A stretch of DNA of 64,000 nt from Candidatus Adlerbacteria bacterium (GTDB lineage Bacteria > Patescibacteriota > Minisyncoccia > Phycocordibacterales > SBAW01): assembly GCA_043784925.1 (NCBI GenBank), contig JAYVXU010000025.1, positions 22,649 through 86,648 on the forward strand, written 5' to 3'. A program made the translations under genes and the position numbers. The notes beneath the pieces were generated by a model, which had not been told where the DNA came from, did not search any database, and saw only the letters and a program-made list of their open reading frames with translations. Shown one piece after another: positions 5,578-14,458 of this stretch; the first letter of the stretch is position 1, and each line of letters starts with the position of its first letter.

Positions 5578-6549
5578 GTGAACACAATGGATGAGTCTTT
5601 AGGGGCGATGTTTAAACAAAATAAGGGGTTAGGAATGCTCTGTCTCGGACTTCTAGTATTTTTGTCGGGTGCTCTTCTTGTATGGAAATATCAGAATAAT
5701 CCGCTCATGGCCCGCCTGTTGGGAAAAAATGTACACATGGTCCCAAAAAGCAGTGCGAAACTTATAAGCCAGGCTACGTATACGTGCAAGGAAGGAAAGA
5801 CAATAGGAGCATCGTTTTTTGAACCAGACAGTGGGGAAGTAGACTCCAAAGGGAGTGTCATCCTGAGTTTACAAGATGGTAGGTCTCTGACTCTGCTCCA
5901 CGCCCAATCAGGTTCGGGAGCACGGTATGCAAACTCGGACGAAAGCTTTGTTTTTTGGAATAAAGGGAACACTGCGTTTATTCAAGAAGGAATCCCCGCT
6001 GTCGAAACATACTCAGGATGTGTCGCGGCAAGTCATGTGGCCGGCAGCGAAAATTGGCAAGTTTTCTCTCCCACTAATCAAGCGTGGTCGGTGAGGTACC
6101 CTCCCCAGTATCAGCTGAAAAAGGATTATATTTTTGAAAGTTTGCAGGGTGCATCGTCTTCAGTGCCAGGGGTTAAGTTTGCAATACCCGCCAGTCTATA
6201 CCAAGGTACAAACATGTCGGGGTTTGACACCGGGGTCTCGGTCGAGCAGTGGACGGGCTCATCAACCTGCCTTGCGACAATTTTTTTGTCTGACCAAGTT
6301 GCAGAAAAAACAATAACCGACATGAATGTTGAGTATTCAGTAGCAACATTTAGTGATGCTGGAGCAGGCAACTTTTATGAGCAAAAAGTGTATGCTATCA
6401 AAAACTCAAATCCTTGCACCGCAGTTCGATATTTTATCCACTCCACCAACATTGGCAATTATTCTAAAGGGGCTGTGCAGGCCTTCAATAAAGAGGCTCT
6501 GCTGGCTCAGTTTGATACAATCCGTGAGTCTCTCATATTGGCACAATAG
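5578..6549 (+). CDS. Membrane-anchored protein with MliC-like (lysozyme-inhibitor) domain
   Basis: 323 aa with an N-terminal TM. The segment YTCKEGKTIGASFF...SLTLLHAQSGSGARYANSDESFVFWNKGNTAFIQEG matches the MliC family pattern (C...SGSGA.Y...F..KG..A). Confidence 0.5.
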   Translation: MNTMDESLGAMFKQNKGLGMLCLGLLVFLSGALLVWKYQNNPLMARLLGKNVHMVPKSSAKLISQATYTCKEGKTIGASFFEPDSGEVDSKGSVILSLQDGRSLTLLHAQSGSGARYANSDESFVFWNKGNTAFIQEGIPAVETYSGCVAASHVAGSENWQVFSPTNQAWSVRYPPQYQLKKDYIFESLQGASSSVPGVKFAIPASLYQGTNMSGFDTGVSVEQWTGSSTCLATIFLSDQVAEKTITDMNVEYSVATFSDAGAGNFYEQKVYAIKNSNPCTAVRYFIHSTNIGNYSKGAVQAFNKEALLAQFDTIRESLILAQ

Positions 6550-6592
6550 ATTTACCATTTTTAGTCGCCTTACTTTTGTATATAGTAGTGTG

Positions 6593-6970
6593 ATGTACGG
6601 TAGGCGAAATCGAAAACAATATTTGAAATTGCGTGAAGAAGCACGTCAATTGGTCAAGGCAAGAATTACCTACTATAACCAGCACTACCAAGTGCCCATC
6701 AAAAAAATTTTTATTAAAAATCACAAGTCACGGTGGGGAAGTTGTAGCCAAAAAGGAAACCTTAATTTCAATTACAAAGTAGTGCTTCTGCCTCCCATAC
6801 TTACCGACTACATTGTGGTCCACGAGTTATGTCATCTTAAGGAATTCAACCACTCGAAAAAGTTTTGGGCAAAAGTTGCTGAAACCATCCCAAACCATGT
6901 TGAGCTACGCCTGGAACTTCGCCGCCTGGAGCGTATAAAAATTGCCCAGACGAGTGTGTTGCGTAGCTAA
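6593..6970 (+). CDS. Short DUF45/YgjP/SprT-like HExxH metallopeptidase
   Basis: HELCHLKEFNHSKKFWAKV is the DUF45 zinc-hydrolase motif. The track start at 6353 lies inside the upstream gene, so I use the ATG at 6593 after the upstream stop at 6549. The protein is unusually short (125 aa) for this family. Confidence 0.5.
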   Translation: MYGRRNRKQYLKLREEARQLVKARITYYNQHYQVPIKKIFIKNHKSRWGSCSQKGNLNFNYKVVLLPPILTDYIVVHELCHLKEFNHSKKFWAKVAETIPNHVELRLELRRLERIKIAQTSVLRS

Positions 6971-7025: not shown

Positions 7026-7313
7026 ATGGACCTCAATAAAGTACCAAAGCAGTTTTGTGAAAATGTAGTAATTGGGTTGTCGCAAGAGTTGTTTGTGATG
7101 GGTATGCTCAACGGAGAGGGGGGCTCTTTTTTTGCTCTTACTCCTCAACACATGAAGCGACTGTCTCAGTACTTAACGCACCAAATTGCAGAATACGAAA
7201 AAAACTTTGGTCCCATAAACGCACAGTGGACCCCGTTTGTGCAAAGCCCTATCCAAACCAAAGACTTAATTGGCGAAGAAGACACCGACGAAGACGAAGA
7301 ACTGTCGGGGTAA
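7026..7313 (+). CDS. DUF3467-like small protein
   Basis: 95 aa. The pattern ELFVMGML ... LTPQHMKRLSQYLTHQIAEYEKNFGPI resembles the DUF3467 consensus (FVLDF ... LSPEHAKRL ... YE..FG.I). Acidic C-terminal tail. Confidence 0.45.
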   Translation: MDLNKVPKQFCENVVIGLSQELFVMGMLNGEGGSFFALTPQHMKRLSQYLTHQIAEYEKNFGPINAQWTPFVQSPIQTKDLIGEEDTDEDEELSG

Positions 7314-7319
7314 TACTTT

Positions 7320-7598
7320 CTACTCAAACTCAGGGCTCCCGACTTTTTTGTGGTTTCGCATTTGCGAAAGAGGCATGTTGGGGTCGGTGTAATGGCGCAA
7401 TACGTGATAGGCCACGTATGCAAAAACTGCAAAAATAATTGCCCCCAGGCTCCATATAAAAAGTGCAATACTTAAGCGCAGAATTGGGTTAGTGGTGGTC
7501 TGCTCAACATTGGTGGCATACATTGCAAGCCAAACAAGTCCCACAAAAAGCCCCAGCCCACCCAATGCTACCGCAATACCTCCCAAAATTTGCTTCAT
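7320..7598 (-). CDS. Small membrane protein, hypothetical
   Basis: 92 aa with 2-3 TM helices, convergent with the upstream + gene. Confidence 0.45.
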   Translation of the reverse strand: MKQILGGIAVALGGLGLFVGLVWLAMYATNVEQTTTNPILRLSIALFIWSLGAIIFAVFAYVAYHVLRHYTDPNMPLSQMRNHKKVGSPEFE

Positions 7599-7780
7599 AC
7601 ACCTGTAGTATATGTTACCTCAATCTCTTTTTCTATATAGAATTACAATTGTCGGGAGCCTATTAAATCGTATTAGAACCTGTTTGGCGTATGGAGGAGT
7701 ATATAATTTTTGCTATTTCGATTTTACTGAGAGGGTTCTGAAGCCACTGGAGAGGGAAGCACAGGAAAAGATTAGAACCT

Positions 7781-7820
7781 AAAAGAAAAGAGCGCCCGCC
7801 GGTCAAAACCGTGGGCGCCC
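7781..7820 (-). terminator. Rho-independent terminator (minus strand) ending the GC-rich island
   Basis: Minus-strand read GGGCGCCCACGG-TTTTGA-CCGGCGGGCGC followed by TCTTTTCTTTT. Lies 27 nt after the stop of ORF 7847..8053. Confidence 0.65.
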
Positions 7821-7846
7821 TTATGACTCTGTTCGAGGATCGTTGC

Positions 7847-8053
7847 TTAGGCGGCGATGTGCAGCTTCGTCTCCTTGTGCTGACGCACTGCCATGCCGAG
7901 AGCCGCGATCGCCGTGACCATCTCGAGCACTTTCCACGCCGGCAACTCGACTATGACGTTGGAGCGACCGCCCGTGTCCTTGGACGATGTGTTGGTGAGG
8001 CCGTCGAGTGCAGAGAGTAATGTGCGGTTGCTTTTTCTGCAGAAGGGATTCAC
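7847..8053 (-). CDS. Anomalous GC-rich small ORF (68 aa, GTG start), hypothetical; possibly foreign fragment
   Basis: Local GC is about 60% against about 42% nearby. GC3 is strongly biased in the minus frame (about 80%). The ORF ends ...KLHIAA and is followed by a strong terminator. No recognisable family. Confidence 0.3.
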   Translation of the reverse strand: MNPFCRKSNRTLLSALDGLTNTSSKDTGGRSNVIVELPAWKVLEMVTAIAALGMAVRQHKETKLHIAA

Positions 8054-8212
8054 TGAACTAGTCCAAACAGAGCGATTGATAAAATCTATATACCAGGAGA
8101 CGGTGAGAGCTTGTCGCGAGTACCTACCAGCTTAAAATGTAGGCTCTCGATTAAATCAGAACGGTTCTCTGAGTCACTCAGACTTATGCTAAAGCATCCT
8201 TGGCTTGTTACT

Positions 8213-8383
8213 TGCCAGGCGTGGTCAGGGTTTTGCCACCAAACCTTGACTATAGAGGTTTCCCGCGTTGTAGGTGTCAAAGGAGTCACTAAAAGGGGAG
8301 GCTGCCTGAGCGGCAATAGGTAAACCAAACGTAACCAACAAACCAAAAAGGATACTTATGCTTGTATATAAAAAATTTTTCAT
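8213..8383 (-). CDS. Small secreted peptide (55 aa) with signal peptide, hypothetical
   Basis: MKNFLYTSISILFGLLVTFGLPIAAQAA signal peptide then 27 aa. Below the 60-aa ORF-track cutoff. Sits upstream of the GC-rich island. Confidence 0.3.
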
Positions 8384-8499
8384 GGCCGAACCCTACCACA
8401 GCTCACGTAAAAAACAGATTGACGTCGCGGATCTTTCGATACGTAACCTCTTTTAGCTCGCTGTCATTCCATTTTTAAGGATGTATGCTCCAGTATCTT

Positions 8500-8519
8500 A
8501 TACACATCAATTTGTGTAT
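8500..8519 (+). promoter_or_regulatory. Candidate LexA operator (ATACACA-N6-TGTGTAT) in lexA promoter region
   Basis: Perfect 7-bp inverted-repeat arms with a 6-bp spacer 40 nt upstream of the lexA ATG. Extra half-sites TGTGTAT at 8522-8528 and ATACACA at 8554-8560, the latter overlapping the start codon. Confidence 0.4.
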
Positions 8520-8559
8520 CTTGTGTATATTTTCATAAAACTATGCTATATTTATACAC

Positions 8560-9219
8560 ATGAACAGAGCATTGACATACAAGCAACAACGCGTACTGGA
8601 CGTTGTTAAAAATTATTTAGAAGTAACGAGTGCCTCACCAACCTTAGAACAATTGCGTACAAAATTGGGTTTTTCTTCTTTGCGCACAGTAGTGCAGTAC
8701 CTCGATATTCTTGAAGAAAAAGGGTATATAGTTCGTCATAGAGGTTTTAAGCGCAATATCGAACTTCGAAATGTTGATGGTGCGTGGGGGACAGTTTCTA
8801 TTCCTGTTATAGCAAATGTGGGTTGCGACGACCTGTCTGTCTTTGCGCAAGAAAAATGTGATGAATATATTGAAGTCGATAAGAGTATTGTCGACGAAGA
8901 AGAAGGAGGTATTGTTGCGGTACGTGCGATTGGAAATTCCATGAACGACGCGGGTATTAATACGGGGGACTATGTGCTGATACGCTTTACTAACCAGGCC
9001 CAAAATGGCGACCGAGTCGCAGCTATTGTTAATGACATGGTGACGGTGAAACGCCTCGAAAGGCGCGATGGGATGACGATTCTTTGGCCTGAATCTAAAG
9101 ATCCTAAGTTTAAGCCCATAATTTTGCGGGAAGACTTTAAGATTGCAGGAAAAGTGTTGTGTGTAATACCTGCTCCTGAGACTGAAATGACTGAAGTGGT
9201 GCCGCTTGATGAGTATTAA
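8560..9219 (+). CDS. lexA: LexA repressor (S24 peptidase family)
   Basis: N-terminal winged HTH. AIGNSMNDAGI carries the catalytic Ser in G-N-SM context. A catalytic Lys follows in VKRLE. The 219-aa length and overall pattern are classic LexA. Confidence 0.85.
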   Translation: MNRALTYKQQRVLDVVKNYLEVTSASPTLEQLRTKLGFSSLRTVVQYLDILEEKGYIVRHRGFKRNIELRNVDGAWGTVSIPVIANVGCDDLSVFAQEKCDEYIEVDKSIVDEEEGGIVAVRAIGNSMNDAGINTGDYVLIRFTNQAQNGDRVAAIVNDMVTVKRLERRDGMTILWPESKDPKFKPIILREDFKIAGKVLCVIPAPETEMTEVVPLDEY

Positions 9220-9280
9220 AACTCTCCTGTTACTCCAAGGTATACTACGGTATGAATAAGTCACGGGTTCGGTTTTTCTC

Positions 9281-10015
9281 TTGAGTAACTTACACTTTCA
9301 TCTTTATATGCGGCACTACATTTGTATACTCAAAAAAGTTGTAACTACTAGTATTGTTATGGGGGCGATTGTAGGCCTCTTTAGTATGTTGCTCATCACG
9401 TACGTTACGGTCAGTACCTATTCAAGCATTTTTGAAAATGTGGATGAAATATCAAATAAACCTGTAGCACTACTTCTTGGTGCTTCTGTTCGCTCAAGTG
9501 GGGCGCTTTCGCCTGTTTTAAAAGAAAGGGCGGATGCTGCGTATGAGCTCTATAGTAAAAAAAAGGTGCTCAAAATTTTAGTGAGTGGTGACAACAGCTC
9601 TCTTGCGTATGACGAAGTATATCCGGTCGGCAAGTATCTCATGAGCAAGGGAGTGCCCCAGGCAGATATATTCCTTGATTACGCGGGGTTTGATACCTAC
9701 AGCAGTGTATTTCGTGCAAAAAAAATATTTGGGGTAACCTCAATGATTATTGTGTCGCAAGCATTCCACCTCCCTCGTGCTTTGTTTATTGCCAGACATA
9801 TGGGTATTTCTGCTGTTGGCGTCGACGCTTCTCATTCGGGGGATTTGTATATAAACAATACATTGCGAGAAATCCCGGCGACAGTAAAAGCTTTTTTTGA
9901 TTTAGTTACTTACAGACAGCCTCGATATTTGGGTCCAAGTTTTAATGTTTTAGGAAGTGGCATTGCAACATGGGTGGGGCCCCGCACCGAAATGATTTAT
10001 TTTATACATGAGTAA
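9281..10015 (+). CDS. SanA/YdcF/DUF218 family membrane-anchored protein
   Basis: N-terminal TM, then the DUF218 core (LLLGASV...ILVSGD ... GVPQADIFLDYAGFDTYSS). The true start may be the internal Met at about 9359. Confidence 0.7.
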   Translation: MSNLHFHLYMRHYICILKKVVTTSIVMGAIVGLFSMLLITYVTVSTYSSIFENVDEISNKPVALLLGASVRSSGALSPVLKERADAAYELYSKKKVLKILVSGDNSSLAYDEVYPVGKYLMSKGVPQADIFLDYAGFDTYSSVFRAKKIFGVTSMIIVSQAFHLPRALFIARHMGISAVGVDASHSGDLYINNTLREIPATVKAFFDLVTYRQPRYLGPSFNVLGSGIATWVGPRTEMIYFIHE

Positions 10016-10126
10016 CAAAGTAGGGGATATTTCGGGCGTTCACAGGCTAGACTTGTAACCTGTGGAAATTATAAATTGAGAACGGTATACTATAGGTATG
10101 CTTACCAATAATAAAAACCAAGGTGT

Positions 10127-10444
10127 ATGTCTAATGTAATTAAAATTCTTATTGTAGTTGTTGTGCTGGCAGGCGGTGCATCGCTTGTAATGTGGAGTGG
10201 TGTGTTAAAACCAAAACCTGTAGTGTCAACTGCGCCTCCTGTGCAGCCGGTTACCGCTCCAGACCCTGCTCCCGCACCTCAGCCAGAAATGAATATGAAT
10301 GGTATGGCCGCCGCTAATGACGCTAATGACGCTGCTCTTGTTCAAGATATGGCTGCTATCGATACGCAAATACAAGGTTTAACTACTGACTCAGCTTCAG
10401 TAGATTCGAGCCTCAATGATAAATCTATGGCTCAAGCATACTAA
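10127..10444 (+). CDS. Small membrane-anchored Pro/Ala-rich protein, hypothetical
   Basis: 105 aa with an N-terminal TM and a PAPAPQP-rich linker. Confidence 0.4.
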   Translation: MSNVIKILIVVVVLAGGASLVMWSGVLKPKPVVSTAPPVQPVTAPDPAPAPQPEMNMNGMAAANDANDAALVQDMAAIDTQIQGLTTDSASVDSSLNDKSMAQAY

Positions 10445-11324
10445 TCACTACTATATTATGACTATCCAAACTCGAATTAAACTTGTACAACTCGCCACGC
10501 TCCTTGTAGGTGGCTCACTTCTTACTCCTGTGTTTGCTTATGCAGCAGGCGTAAATGTTACAACAGAAGCAAAAACTGCAGTTACTGCAGGCGCTGTGTC
10601 AGCCTCCTCCACAGCCTCAGTAAAGGTTGATGCTAAATTGCAACCTGCAATAGACAAGGCTGATAAAGAAATTGACCGACGAATTGCATCTTTAAATGAA
10701 CTCACGACACGCATTGATGCTACGCAGCGAGTTACTGCTGAGTTTAAACAAAAGCTAACGACAAATGTTCAAAATCACATCACAGGCCTTAACCAACTAA
10801 AAGCAAAAATTGATGCAGACACAGATGCTGCAACTTTGAAAACTGATATTAAAACTATTACCGAGTCCTACCGGGTATATATGCTTATAGTGCCTCAAGC
10901 ACGTATTGCAACTGCTGCTGACCGTGAAATTACTCTTATCACCATGATGAATCAGTTGGGAGCTAAGCTTCAGGCACGATTGTCGTCGGCCCAAAGTACC
11001 GGTGCAAATGTGACTGCGCTCCTCACTGCTTTGACCGACATGAGTAAAAAACTAAATGATGCGAGTACTCAAGCACAAGCTGCGGTGTCTGTGAGCTCTG
11101 CCTTGGCACCAGACGAAGGAGACAAAACAAAAATAACTCAAAACGCTGCTGCACTCAAAACAGCCCGCGCAGATATACAAAGTGCACACAAGGATCTTGT
11201 TGCAGCCCGCAAGGACGCAGAGGTTGTAACCAAGGGTCTTAAGGCCCTTCCTGCGGTCAGTGCTACTGCTAGTTCAACCACAAAAGTTAAAACTCCTGCC
11301 ACTACTTCAACCACAAGTCACTAA
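10416..11324 (+). CDS. Secreted Ala/Thr/Lys-rich coiled-coil protein, hypothetical
   Basis: Signal peptide (LLVGGSLLTPVFAYAAG) followed by a long heptad-like Ala/Gln/Lys/Thr-rich sequence. Likely start at the Met at about 10458. Confidence 0.5.
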   Translation: MINLWLKHTNHYYIMTIQTRIKLVQLATLLVGGSLLTPVFAYAAGVNVTTEAKTAVTAGAVSASSTASVKVDAKLQPAIDKADKEIDRRIASLNELTTRIDATQRVTAEFKQKLTTNVQNHITGLNQLKAKIDADTDAATLKTDIKTITESYRVYMLIVPQARIATAADREITLITMMNQLGAKLQARLSSAQSTGANVTALLTALTDMSKKLNDASTQAQAAVSVSSALAPDEGDKTKITQNAAALKTARADIQSAHKDLVAARKDAEVVTKGLKALPAVSATASSTTKVKTPATTSTTSH

Positions 11325-11377
11325 CTATTCTTTGACTCGTTCCAAAATGCTCCTACTCTGTAGGAGCATTTTGCGTT

Positions 11378-12433
11378 ATGCTAAAAAGAATGACAAATTT
11401 TCAAAAGGTTAGTGCATGGATAACTGCCGTGGGGGTAGGAATACTAGCGCCACTCGTGTCTTCTGCTCACGAGGTATATGTACTAACCCCAGAAGAAATA
11501 CACAAAGGCGTATCTTCTTTTTCGCCTAATCCTTTTCTTGCAATTTCAGAGCATGAATCACTTTTTGTGTTTTGGGGAATAGTTTCTTTTTTAGTTGTAG
11601 TTACCATATTTTGTTTCTCGCTTTTTCGAAGGGTTGAAAAAATGCTGTACCCCTCGTTTATGCGTATGAAACATTTTGCACCTTTAATTGTTCGTGTGAC
11701 GCTTGGCGTGTGTCTCATGACTAGTGCTTACTACAATAGTTTGTTTGGTCCGGAGTTGCCTCTTAGTACACTAACGAGCCCTGTAGCTTTATTTTTACAA
11801 ATAGCACTCTTTATATCTGGACTCTGTATTGCTCTGGGCTATCTAACCCGGCTCGCTGCACTTTTGGCTTTGTGTATATTTGGAGTGGGAGTCTTATTTT
11901 TTGGGGTATACATGGTTACCTATAGTAATTTTATAGGCGAAATGCTCTTGGTTGCAATTGTAGGAGGGGGCATAGTGTCGCTTGATGGTCAAAAGCAGGC
12001 CCGGCAAGTATGGCTTAAAAAAATTATTACGTATTTTGAGTCAAGAAGTTTTTTACTATTACGCATTGGGTTTGGTATGTCGGTTATGGCCGCAGCCGTA
12101 TATGCAAAATTTCTTCATAGTAACTTAGCGCTTGAAACGATTCAAAAATATTCTCTAACAAGCTACTTTCATTTCGACCCACTGTTTATAGTGCTCGGTG
12201 CTTTTATTATTGAAATACTCATTGGAGTATTTATCATACTAGGTGTGGAGCTTCGTTGGACCGCAATTTTCTTTCTTTTTTGGCTTAGTTTGTCAGTGGT
12301 GGTGTTTGGAGAGTCAGTGTGGCCGCACCTTGTATTGGTGGGGCTCAATCTTGCTCTTATATTCCATGGGTATGACCGCTACACTATTATTGGAAGATTT
12401 TTTACCCACCCTGACCGCGAACCAGTGTTGTAG
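11378..12433 (+). CDS. Polytopic membrane protein with tandem DoxX-like modules
   Basis: 351 aa and about 9 TM. Two repeats carry a DoxX-like LxRxxLG signature (LIVRVTLGVCL ; LLLRIGFGMSVMAAAVYAKF). Confidence 0.4.
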   Translation: MLKRMTNFQKVSAWITAVGVGILAPLVSSAHEVYVLTPEEIHKGVSSFSPNPFLAISEHESLFVFWGIVSFLVVVTIFCFSLFRRVEKMLYPSFMRMKHFAPLIVRVTLGVCLMTSAYYNSLFGPELPLSTLTSPVALFLQIALFISGLCIALGYLTRLAALLALCIFGVGVLFFGVYMVTYSNFIGEMLLVAIVGGGIVSLDGQKQARQVWLKKIITYFESRSFLLLRIGFGMSVMAAAVYAKFLHSNLALETIQKYSLTSYFHFDPLFIVLGAFIIEILIGVFIILGVELRWTAIFFLFWLSLSVVVFGESVWPHLVLVGLNLALIFHGYDRYTIIGRFFTHPDREPVL

Positions 12434-12453
12434 ACTATGCTACACTGGTTTCT

Positions 12454-12672
12454 ATGACGGAACTTACTCCAGAAATTGAGTCGAAACTTGATATGCTAGA
12501 AGCAAAGATCGACGCCCTGTATGTTTCTACAGAAAAAACGCGAAAAATTTTAAAGTGGACTGGCATTATTACTATTGCCACTTTTGTTATTCCTTTACTG
12601 CTAGCACCCCTTCTCATCCCGCTTCTCCCTGCCTTTTTCCAGTCGCAAGGAGTCGCTATCCCTGGACTATAG
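12454..12672 (+). CDS. Small coiled-coil plus TM protein, hypothetical
   Basis: 72 aa with a C-terminal TM segment. Confidence 0.35.
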   Translation: MTELTPEIESKLDMLEAKIDALYVSTEKTRKILKWTGIITIATFVIPLLLAPLLIPLLPAFFQSQGVAIPGL

Positions 12673-12772
12673 ACTAAAACTCCAACGACTTGCCTTATTT
12701 TAAAAAGGTGGTAGGATGCGCCGAGCTTCTTATTAGGGCCTGGTGCATTCTATTATCTAATCTATAAGTATT

Positions 12773-13681
12773 ATGTTGTTTTCTACATTTTCGCGTAAGG
12801 CTGTTTTTACCCTCGTACTCGCTCTCGCCGCTCTCCCCGTGCTTTCGTATGCTCAAAATTACAACTGCACGTACCCCTTTTATAATGGTACTGGCACCTG
12901 TGCCCAGCCTGGAATGCTACACGTCTATGTGGTTACTCTCCCTACTAGCAACCAGCCATCTCGCGTACCTGCAGACTTCACTGTGGTAGTGCATGCTCAG
13001 AGTGTGCCCCAGCAAACATTTGCGGGTTCACAAAGCGGCACCACCGTCACCCTCCAAGGTGCATATACTGTCGAAGTGCTTCCTATGCAAAATTACACCC
13101 AAACGTATTCTCGAGGTTGTACGGGGACCATATACTCACAAGAAGAAACATGTGTTATCACTATGAGCCCGAACTATGCGTATAGCGTGCCGGTGACACC
13201 TTACCAGTATCCATACCCTTACGCGCAAAATGTCTTAACCTGTGCGCCAGCGTACCAAACAGTGAGTCTTGGACAGAGTGTACACTTTACTGCAATCGGA
13301 GGCACGAACCCTTATACATGGTCTACGGGTCACTCTACATACCAAGCGATTGGCCCTGTCTTTAACACCGTACTTCAAAACTCTGGAGAGCAAACTGTCA
13401 GTGTCTCGAACGGAACACAAACAGCGGTATGTACTGTCAACGTAGTGGGCGGACATGGACCTGTGATGCCTCCACCTACAACTATTTCAACTATTTCAAA
13501 CACCACCATTGTAGGCCCTGCAACTTTTACTGCGCAATATGTGCCAGCACCAAGGCTTCCTAACACAGGATTTGGCCCAGCATCACTTGTTCAGTGGATA
13601 TTTGCTGTATTGGCACTAGCAGGTGTTGGTGTCCTCATAACTCCGTATGTTAGAAAATCGTTCGTATCCATTGCGCAATAA
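12773..13681 (+). CDS. LPXTG (LPNTG) cell-wall-anchored surface protein
   Basis: N-terminal signal peptide. The C-terminus has LPNTG, then a hydrophobic stretch (WIFAVLALAGVGVLI) and a positively charged tail (RKS), the canonical sortase sorting signal. Confidence 0.8.
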   Translation: MLFSTFSRKAVFTLVLALAALPVLSYAQNYNCTYPFYNGTGTCAQPGMLHVYVVTLPTSNQPSRVPADFTVVVHAQSVPQQTFAGSQSGTTVTLQGAYTVEVLPMQNYTQTYSRGCTGTIYSQEETCVITMSPNYAYSVPVTPYQYPYPYAQNVLTCAPAYQTVSLGQSVHFTAIGGTNPYTWSTGHSTYQAIGPVFNTVLQNSGEQTVSVSNGTQTAVCTVNVVGGHGPVMPPPTTISTISNTTIVGPATFTAQYVPAPRLPNTGFGPASLVQWIFAVLALAGVGVLITPYVRKSFVSIAQ

Positions 13682-14309
13682 TAACTATTCAAAAGTGCGT
13701 CAGTATATAGTCCACATAACCTGTGCTGTTTTGGGTGGGTTAGTGGTTGTGTATGGCGCAAATGACGTAGTACATAGAATACGAGCCTATCCACTTCAGA
13801 GTGCAGTTTCAAAGCCGGTTGTGACCGCAACCTCACCTATATACCTAGACAGTGCACCTGCACTTGTACCGGCACGTATTAGCGTGCCGGCAATTGGTGT
13901 TAATGCAGAAGTTGAAGAAGTTCAAAAAACAAAAGCAGGTGCTATGGCAACTCCAACAAAATTTAGTAATGTAGGTTGGTATACCCTCGGGGTTTCTCCT
14001 GGTGCTGCCGGGAATGCCGTATTTGATGGTCATGTAAATAACGCACTTACCAGGGCGGGTGTATTTGAACATCTCTCTTTAGTCAAAGTGGGGGATACTG
14101 TTGTGGTCATTAATGCGCAAGCACAAAGGCTTGTCTTTGTAGTGACTGATATAGAGGACTATACAAATGACGAAGCTCCACTAGAAAGAATATTTGCGAT
14201 TGACGGCCCGTCTGGTGTGGTACTTATAACCTGTGCAGGGGAGTGGGATGCTCATGCGAGGTCTTTCAATAAGCGTCTGGTGGTATACGCTCGACTCGTG
14301 TCGGAGTAG
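13647..14309 (+). CDS. Sortase (class E/F-like transpeptidase)
   Basis: N-terminal TM anchor, catalytic His in FDGHV, TLxTC motif as VLITCAG (catalytic Cys), downstream Arg. Overlaps the end of the LPNTG substrate gene. Confidence 0.8.
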   Translation: MLENRSYPLRNNNYSKVRQYIVHITCAVLGGLVVVYGANDVVHRIRAYPLQSAVSKPVVTATSPIYLDSAPALVPARISVPAIGVNAEVEEVQKTKAGAMATPTKFSNVGWYTLGVSPGAAGNAVFDGHVNNALTRAGVFEHLSLVKVGDTVVVINAQAQRLVFVVTDIEDYTNDEAPLERIFAIDGPSGVVLITCAGEWDAHARSFNKRLVVYARLVSE

Positions 14310-14458
14310 ATTCTGCAGATTGTGCTTTGACTGTGTTCATGGTATCCTAGCGCTGTTCCTAAGTAAGTTCTCCGGTCCGCAGTGCGGCAATGTAGGGGAG
14401 GTCGCCTTACGAGAAGAACGGGGCAAATAGCCCTATTAATTCATTCGATAGCGCAACT

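Follow-up and report, generated by a model that had tools for sequence, protein, structure and literature searches.

The DNA analysed here, hereafter the window, is a stretch of 64,000 nucleotides (64 kb) from a Candidatus Adlerbacteria genome. It carries a lexA gene (8560..9219) whose product is 89-93% identical to LexA of Candidatus Adlerbacteria MAGs, and the interval upstream of this gene holds an insert with a GC-rich island in it. The features of this interval are the following:

7314..8487, no strand assigned: strain-specific DNA of ~1.17 kb, flanked by the DUF3467 gene (7026..7313) on one side and by the conserved lexA promoter on the other
7320..7598, minus strand: mem92, gene of a 92-aa small membrane protein, with native-like codon usage and downstream of the terminator
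7781..7822, minus strand: intrinsic-terminator-like hairpin (10+4 bp, GC-rich) and T-tract, covered by a sub-threshold ctRNA_p42d match
7847..8017, minus strand: 3' remnant of a foreign gene, with its last 55-56 codons and stop codon (7847-7849) and a GC3 of ~0.8
8018..8053, minus strand: read-in codons of the 68-aa ORF, GTG MNPFCRKSNRTL, that is its first 12-13 codons, with native GC and no homology to the family described below
8054..8224, minus strand: spacer with no convincing coding signal and many stops in the signal-peptide frame
8225..8383, minus strand: 52-aa signal-peptide ORF, with a predicted Sec-type signal peptide (..PIAAQA|AS..) followed by a tail of 25 residues

By computing GC content along the window, we found that positions 7800-7999 reach 60.5% GC (0.605) against 0.39-0.46 in the flanks, in agreement with the jump to ~60% reported in the initial annotation. 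The highest 250-nt value of the entire window (mean 0.44, sd 0.045) is 0.604 and starts at 7791, the next peaks (0.58) lying within long ORFs at ~18.75 and ~29.15 kb. The minus-strand ORF 7847..8053 encodes 68 aa from a GTG start to a C-terminal end ...KLHIAA*, with GC1/GC2/GC3 values of 0.54/0.45/0.78 and a GC3 of 0.84 in its core. Hence the ~80% GC3 attributed to this open frame was correct (0.78 vs a host GC3 of 0.40 ± 0.046, with a maximum of 0.49 over 29 long host ORFs). A strong 3-base GC periodicity runs across the island, which indicates coding ancestry. On the other hand, the earlier statement that the three frames are open on both strands was overstated, since 3/6 frames have stops inside the island. 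Between 7800 and 8050, two plus frames carry three stops each (7824/7848/7881 and 7915/7954/7996) and a minus frame is interrupted at 7953; the frames that stay open across the island core are the true one, a second minus frame and a single plus frame. We also noticed that the gene caller used on a Logan contig covering this region predicted a 65-aa ORF on the strand opposite to the remnant (L001 796-993, which is window 7823-8020, plus strand). This ORF is a shadow ORF, as is typical of GC3-rich sequence.

The GC-rich hairpin and T-tract described earlier after the stop codon are indeed present. The hairpin (7822->7788 on the minus strand) starts ~24-26 nt past the stop codon and is directly followed by the T-tract UCUUUUCUUUU; its dG is -25.2 kcal/mol (z -4.5) and none of 200 shuffles folded equally well. 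It escaped a simple consensus terminator scan owing to an internal bulge. A GC-rich region in an AT-richer genome with a terminator behind it could also be a structured non-coding RNA, with GC-rich helices that look like an ORF, as was proposed initially, and the plus strand indeed folds with a z of -2.2. We give this possibility almost no credence. First, the minus strand, which is the one carrying the terminator, folds no better than shuffled sequences (z -0.86). Second, an Rfam scan, suggested together with the RNA idea, returned zero matches at the gathering threshold in the 64-kb window, and the best relaxed match (ctRNA_p42d, 22.8 bits vs a threshold of 50) covers nothing more than the hairpin and the U-tract. 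Third, the 3-base GC periodicity, the protein homology and the synonymous-biased substitutions described below (dN/dS 0.23-0.29) all speak for coding ancestry.

We then searched for relatives of the 68-aa ORF. An exact-word (word-index) protein search against a collection of 5.8 billion proteins gave no match, the ORF not even being a called gene there, so that an exhaustive phmmer search was needed for detecting the family. Run on 1.84 billion representatives, phmmer gave proteins of 188 aa (E = 6e-11), 134 aa (1.5e-8) and 193 aa (2.4e-7) whose extreme C-termini match residues 14-68 of the ORF, and a second search found P0001 (186 aa) with 82% identity over its last 56 residues. The alignment of ORF residues 13/14-68 with the last 55-56 residues of the family is ungapped, the identity to the protein P0007 encoded on contig L060 being 76%. 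The homology extends to DNA, in ungapped matches spanning 165-172 bases: window 8013..7849 is 85% identical to contig L056, and window 8015..7844 is 82% identical to L060. It is limited by the stop codon at one end and by an abrupt break at ~8014-8017 at the other, the very point where GC drops to the host level. By comparing six members with 7300-8600 by tblastn, we found the last 55-56 residues as the sole match; the N-terminal ~130 residues are missing from all frames. The break together with the missing N-terminal part shows that the 68-aa ORF combines 12-13 unrelated codons with the last 55-56 codons of a foreign gene. Blastn and tblastn searches against phage and plasmid collections gave no significant match.

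What the window keeps is the C-terminal module of the family, L..L..S....G...V....PAWK..E..TA...L ... AA-stop, including the LPAWKVLEM-TAI-AL helix and the invariant terminal Ala-Ala. What it lacks, compared to a full length of ~186 aa, is the HTFPNGD beta domain and the middle helices, with the invariant M54, YLGE and P..W. All 17 invariant columns of alignment A3 (17/17) fall within the span of the fragment and the window has the conserved residue at each of them, as it must, given that A3 includes the window fragment itself. Substitutions between the fragment and the members are biased to synonymous sites, with a dN/dS of 0.23-0.29 against intact members and of 0.30 between intact members. 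Judged from its sequence, the island is therefore a truncated remnant rather than a member gene of this family. The horizontally acquired gene fragment considered at the outset is thus demonstrated by the phmmer match (E 6e-11) and the 82% identity to P0001, and further by the DNA homology to the 3' ends of full-length Paceibacteria genes and by the absence of the insert from close relatives (see below).

The family itself is an orphan one. A profile search recovered 15 sequence clusters among 5.8 billion proteins, and all named members, P0001 and P0007 among them, are called 'hypothetical protein'. Members are 185-203 aa long, except for a truncated copy of 134 aa (P0003), and share a beta-rich HTFPNGD domain at the N-terminus, a long C-terminal helix that contains the invariant PAWK, and Ala-Ala as last residues. 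In full-length members the N-terminal 130 residues are conserved and lack a signal peptide. We found no match to the family in Pfam, PHROGs, PADLOC or PDB sequences, nor did viral contigs contain relatives of it. AlphaFold2 modelled P0007 poorly (pLDDT 60), and a Foldseek comparison of the model to the PDB gave no meaningful match. In alignment A6, the C-terminus is Ala-Ala in 14/15 members as well as in the window fragment (7850-7855), and Val-Ala in the remaining one. This ending resembles, we presume, ssrA-like ClpXP degrons. The 134-aa P0003 (L059 1-517) is a decayed copy in which most of the N-terminal domain is deleted, ..GLTVFTVSYG.. being still readable in frame upstream, past a stop codon.

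Some of the full-length genes are found in other Paceibacteria (candidate-phyla-radiation bacteria), on chromosomal contigs where they stand next to genes for ParB, peptide deformylase (def), DsbB, YkuD, TypA and a DEAD-box helicase, and these neighbours are 45-72% identical to Adlerbacteria/Paceibacterota genes. For one member, the gene order is constant in 16 contigs from many samples. Such chromosomal contigs with Adlerbacteria/Paceibacterota-like neighbours point to other Paceibacteria, of ~50% GC, as donors. Since the family genes have a GC3 of 0.66-0.86, the 'foreign' look of the fragment comes from a gene that is itself GC3-rich in its hosts. Likewise, the family gene at L069 6001-6597 has a GC3 of 0.81 vs 0.38-0.53 in 12 neighbouring genes, the copy in L062 (3001-3561) reaches 0.86, and further GC3-rich copies are found at L060 7998-8558 and L061 7974-8558. 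This excess over most neighbours is seen in several hosts despite only 38-45% identity between members, and could reflect repeated transfer or GC-biased gene conversion. We also observed that P0014 lies directly downstream of a gene for an HTH_38+rve (IS30-type) transposase (L069 4938-5927, L070 2116-3105) and that a gene for an IS200-like Y1 transposase lies ~5 kb from the L061 member, which hints that the family travels with mobile elements.

A hairpin followed by a T-tract is also found ~25-30 nt past the family stop codons in L057, L061 and L058. These hairpins are homologous neither to each other nor to the one in the window; their shared position nonetheless makes it plausible that the window hairpin is the imported gene's own terminator.

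To place the insert, we compared the surroundings of lexA in related genomes. L004 and L005 have ygjP-like, DUF3467 and lexA in this order, with a DUF3467-lexA gap of only ~120-130 nt, and the ~1.17-kb insert is absent from both. At the same spot, the equally close relative L003 carries a different cargo of ~1.45 kb (1188-2640) with unrelated ORFs of 168 and 121 aa that have no Pfam or PADLOC match. More broadly, the ygjP-lexA interval varies from ~70 nt to ~5.6 kb across Paceibacteria (L003-L046), DNA-level conservation is limited to the lexA promoter (8490-8560), and the 55-codon fragment was not found in any of 53 related lexA loci. The insert has no flanking repeats beyond short chance-level ones, no transposase domain, no integrase and no tRNA; ARAGORN found zero tRNA genes in the 64-kb window.

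Two further observations concern the genes on either side. First, ATACACA-N6-TGTGTAT, a perfect palindrome, is located immediately before lexA (8498-8520), with further TGTGTAT / ATACACA copies nearby (8552-8564). It occurs once in the 64-kb window and its bases are invariant in four Adlerbacteria loci (including L003, L004 and L005), making it a candidate LexA operator (SOS box). Second, the 205-aa ORF of the YgjP-like metallopeptidase (6353-6970) overlaps the preceding 323-aa MliC-domain ORF (5578..6549). Given that the relatives' YgjP-like protein has 128 aa and the N-terminus MLMRRNRIQYLKLRE, the gene in the window probably starts at an internal Met near 6590 (MYGRRNRKQYLKLREEA).

An abrupt change in composition over a short foreign segment, in a gene whose relatives are present in similar metagenomes, is also what would be seen if ~240 nt from a GC-richer organism of the same sample had been misspliced into the contig, and a chimeric assembly or contamination had been put forward in the initial annotation. 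This is hardly credible here. Over 7028..14421, which includes both junctions, the window is matched with 100% identity by a separately built Logan contig of 7,394 bp recorded for 2 samples, so that two false joins within 240 nt would have had to arise alike in two assemblers, and the site of the segment varies in other genomes too. Because the Logan assembly is base-for-base the same, a chimera is not what we retain.

Two more features are found in the rest of the insert, mem92 and the signal-peptide ORF. The codon score of mem92 (0.223) equals the mean of true genes, and its product has weak matches to membrane-protein families and nothing stronger, with no relatives in related loci or in viral contigs. 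As announced, a signal-peptide ORF lies upstream of the 68-aa ORF on the same strand; its extent had to be corrected from 8213..8383 (55 aa) to 8225..8383 (52 aa), and its distance to the GTG from ~160 to 171 nt. Its translation, MKNFLYTSISILFGLLVTFGLPIAAQA|AS, shows by eye an N-terminal Lys, a hydrophobic core and an A-x-A motif, and its codon score (0.224) equals the true-gene mean, a value reached by 1.3% of spurious ORFs. No homologues of the 52-aa ORF were found, and the signal-peptide region has no relatives in viral contigs either. The ORF may encode a small secreted peptide or be the 5' stub of a lost gene. Upstream of 32 native genes, Shine-Dalgarno (SD) complementarity is close to nil (median duplex energy ~0 kcal/mol), which suggests that translation initiation in this genome is independent of Shine-Dalgarno pairing; the missing SD before the GTG is hence uninformative on translation.

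Between these two ORFs, an 86-aa frame (8086..8346) has a codon score of -0.03, and 31% of spurious ORFs score as high; we found no homologue of it. We considered that the signal-peptide ORF might be frameshifted into this frame, giving a LamG-like secreted protein, and rejected it on its spurious-ORF codon statistics and lack of homologues. A wider version of the idea would join the 86-aa frame to both the signal peptide upstream and the GC-rich tail downstream, as one decayed secreted protein of ~178 aa broken by two compensating frameshifts. In its favour, the ORFs 8383.. and 8053.. have their reading frame in common (mod 3 = 1), and the middle frame is open for 86 codons. We hold this version to be very improbable: the shared frame is a 1-in-3 coincidence, the middle frame scores as a spurious ORF, GC and homology break sharply at ~8015, and the conserved N-terminal 130 residues of full-length members are different and lack a signal peptide.

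Taking these observations together, we regard it as likely that the island is a non-functional, recently acquired, 5'-truncated remnant of a foreign gene. A GC3-rich gene of the orphan family, circulating in Paceibacteria, would have entered the variable site between DUF3467 and lexA, coming along within the 1.17-kb insert or being added to it. The first ~130 codons would later have been lost through a deletion or an illegitimate recombination at ~8014-8017, leaving the last 55-56 codons, the stop codon and, we infer, the gene's own terminator. The 68-aa 'ORF' would exist solely because 12-13 unrelated upstream codons are, by chance, free of stops in that frame. The terminator is probably the one part that still works, by ending the transcript of the signal-peptide ORF and insulating mem92 downstream. 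As the GC and GC3 signature of the donor has not yet drifted to the host composition, the event would be recent. The family copy in L059, with its in-frame stop and N-terminal deletion, is a precedent for such decay. In this reading, the homology, the point of truncation, the missing insert in relatives and the match between independent assemblies are direct results, and the lost function, the recency and the part played by the terminator are inferred. Against a mere relic speak the intact frame of the fragment and the residue kept at each invariant family position that it covers. Its dN/dS is no higher than between intact members and hence gives no sign of relaxed selection, and the values of 0.23-0.29 fit a very recent truncation as well as continued function.

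The same features, together with the retained terminator, could mean that the C-terminal module has been kept as a functional mini-protein of 55-68 aa, made of a long helix with the invariant PAWK and a C-terminal Ala-Ala, its expression relying on the signal-peptide transcript or on a start of its own. In addition, the AlphaFold model of a full-length member predicts, with low confidence, a single helix for residues 157-185. We consider a functional mini-protein unlikely, because the same data are expected after a recent truncation and a GC3 that is still undiluted speaks for a recent event. Also, read-in of unrelated sequence accounts for the first 12-13 codons, the fragment was found in 0/53 related lexA loci, the exact-word search found no protein resembling the 68-aa ORF among 5.8 billion, and the Logan gene caller picked the opposite strand. 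More broadly, it is improbable that the fragment is more than junk, be it a functional module that was retained or a silent 3' cassette belonging to an orphan family that is a GC3 outlier in several hosts. If it were, the GC3 pattern could mean frequent recombination or GC-biased gene conversion between copies, and the stub beside lexA could be a recombination donor, or a small degron-tagged (Ala-Ala) peptide under SOS conditions.

Reading the island as a truncated foreign gene remnant has several consequences. First, it should be marked in annotations as a pseudogene remnant, and neither as a 68-aa gene nor as a 65-aa gene on the opposite strand. Second, Paceibacteria are often thought to exchange few genes, and the remnant would document recent gene flow between lineages of these small-genome bacteria. 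Third, the interval upstream of lexA is shown to be variable in Adlerbacteria. Fourth, the donor family is a small puzzle in its own right, being rare, ending in Ala-Ala and having a GC3 above most neighbours in several hosts.

With respect to known systems, the window hairpin resembles Rho-independent terminators in having a GC-rich stem-loop directly followed by a U-tract ~25 nt after a stop codon, and differs from those of intact genes in that this predicted terminator now stands behind a truncated gene. An insertion sequence, a MITE or an integrative element would be marked by terminal inverted repeats, a target-site duplication or a transposase or integrase gene; the insertion site in this genome is devoid of integrase, transposase, tRNA and flanking repeats. 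The island shares with acquired gene remnants in variable regions its foreign composition, its truncation at one end, its absence from sister genomes and its location in an interval of variable length. Horizontally acquired remnants of this sort, sitting in variable regions, are a familiar type of feature.
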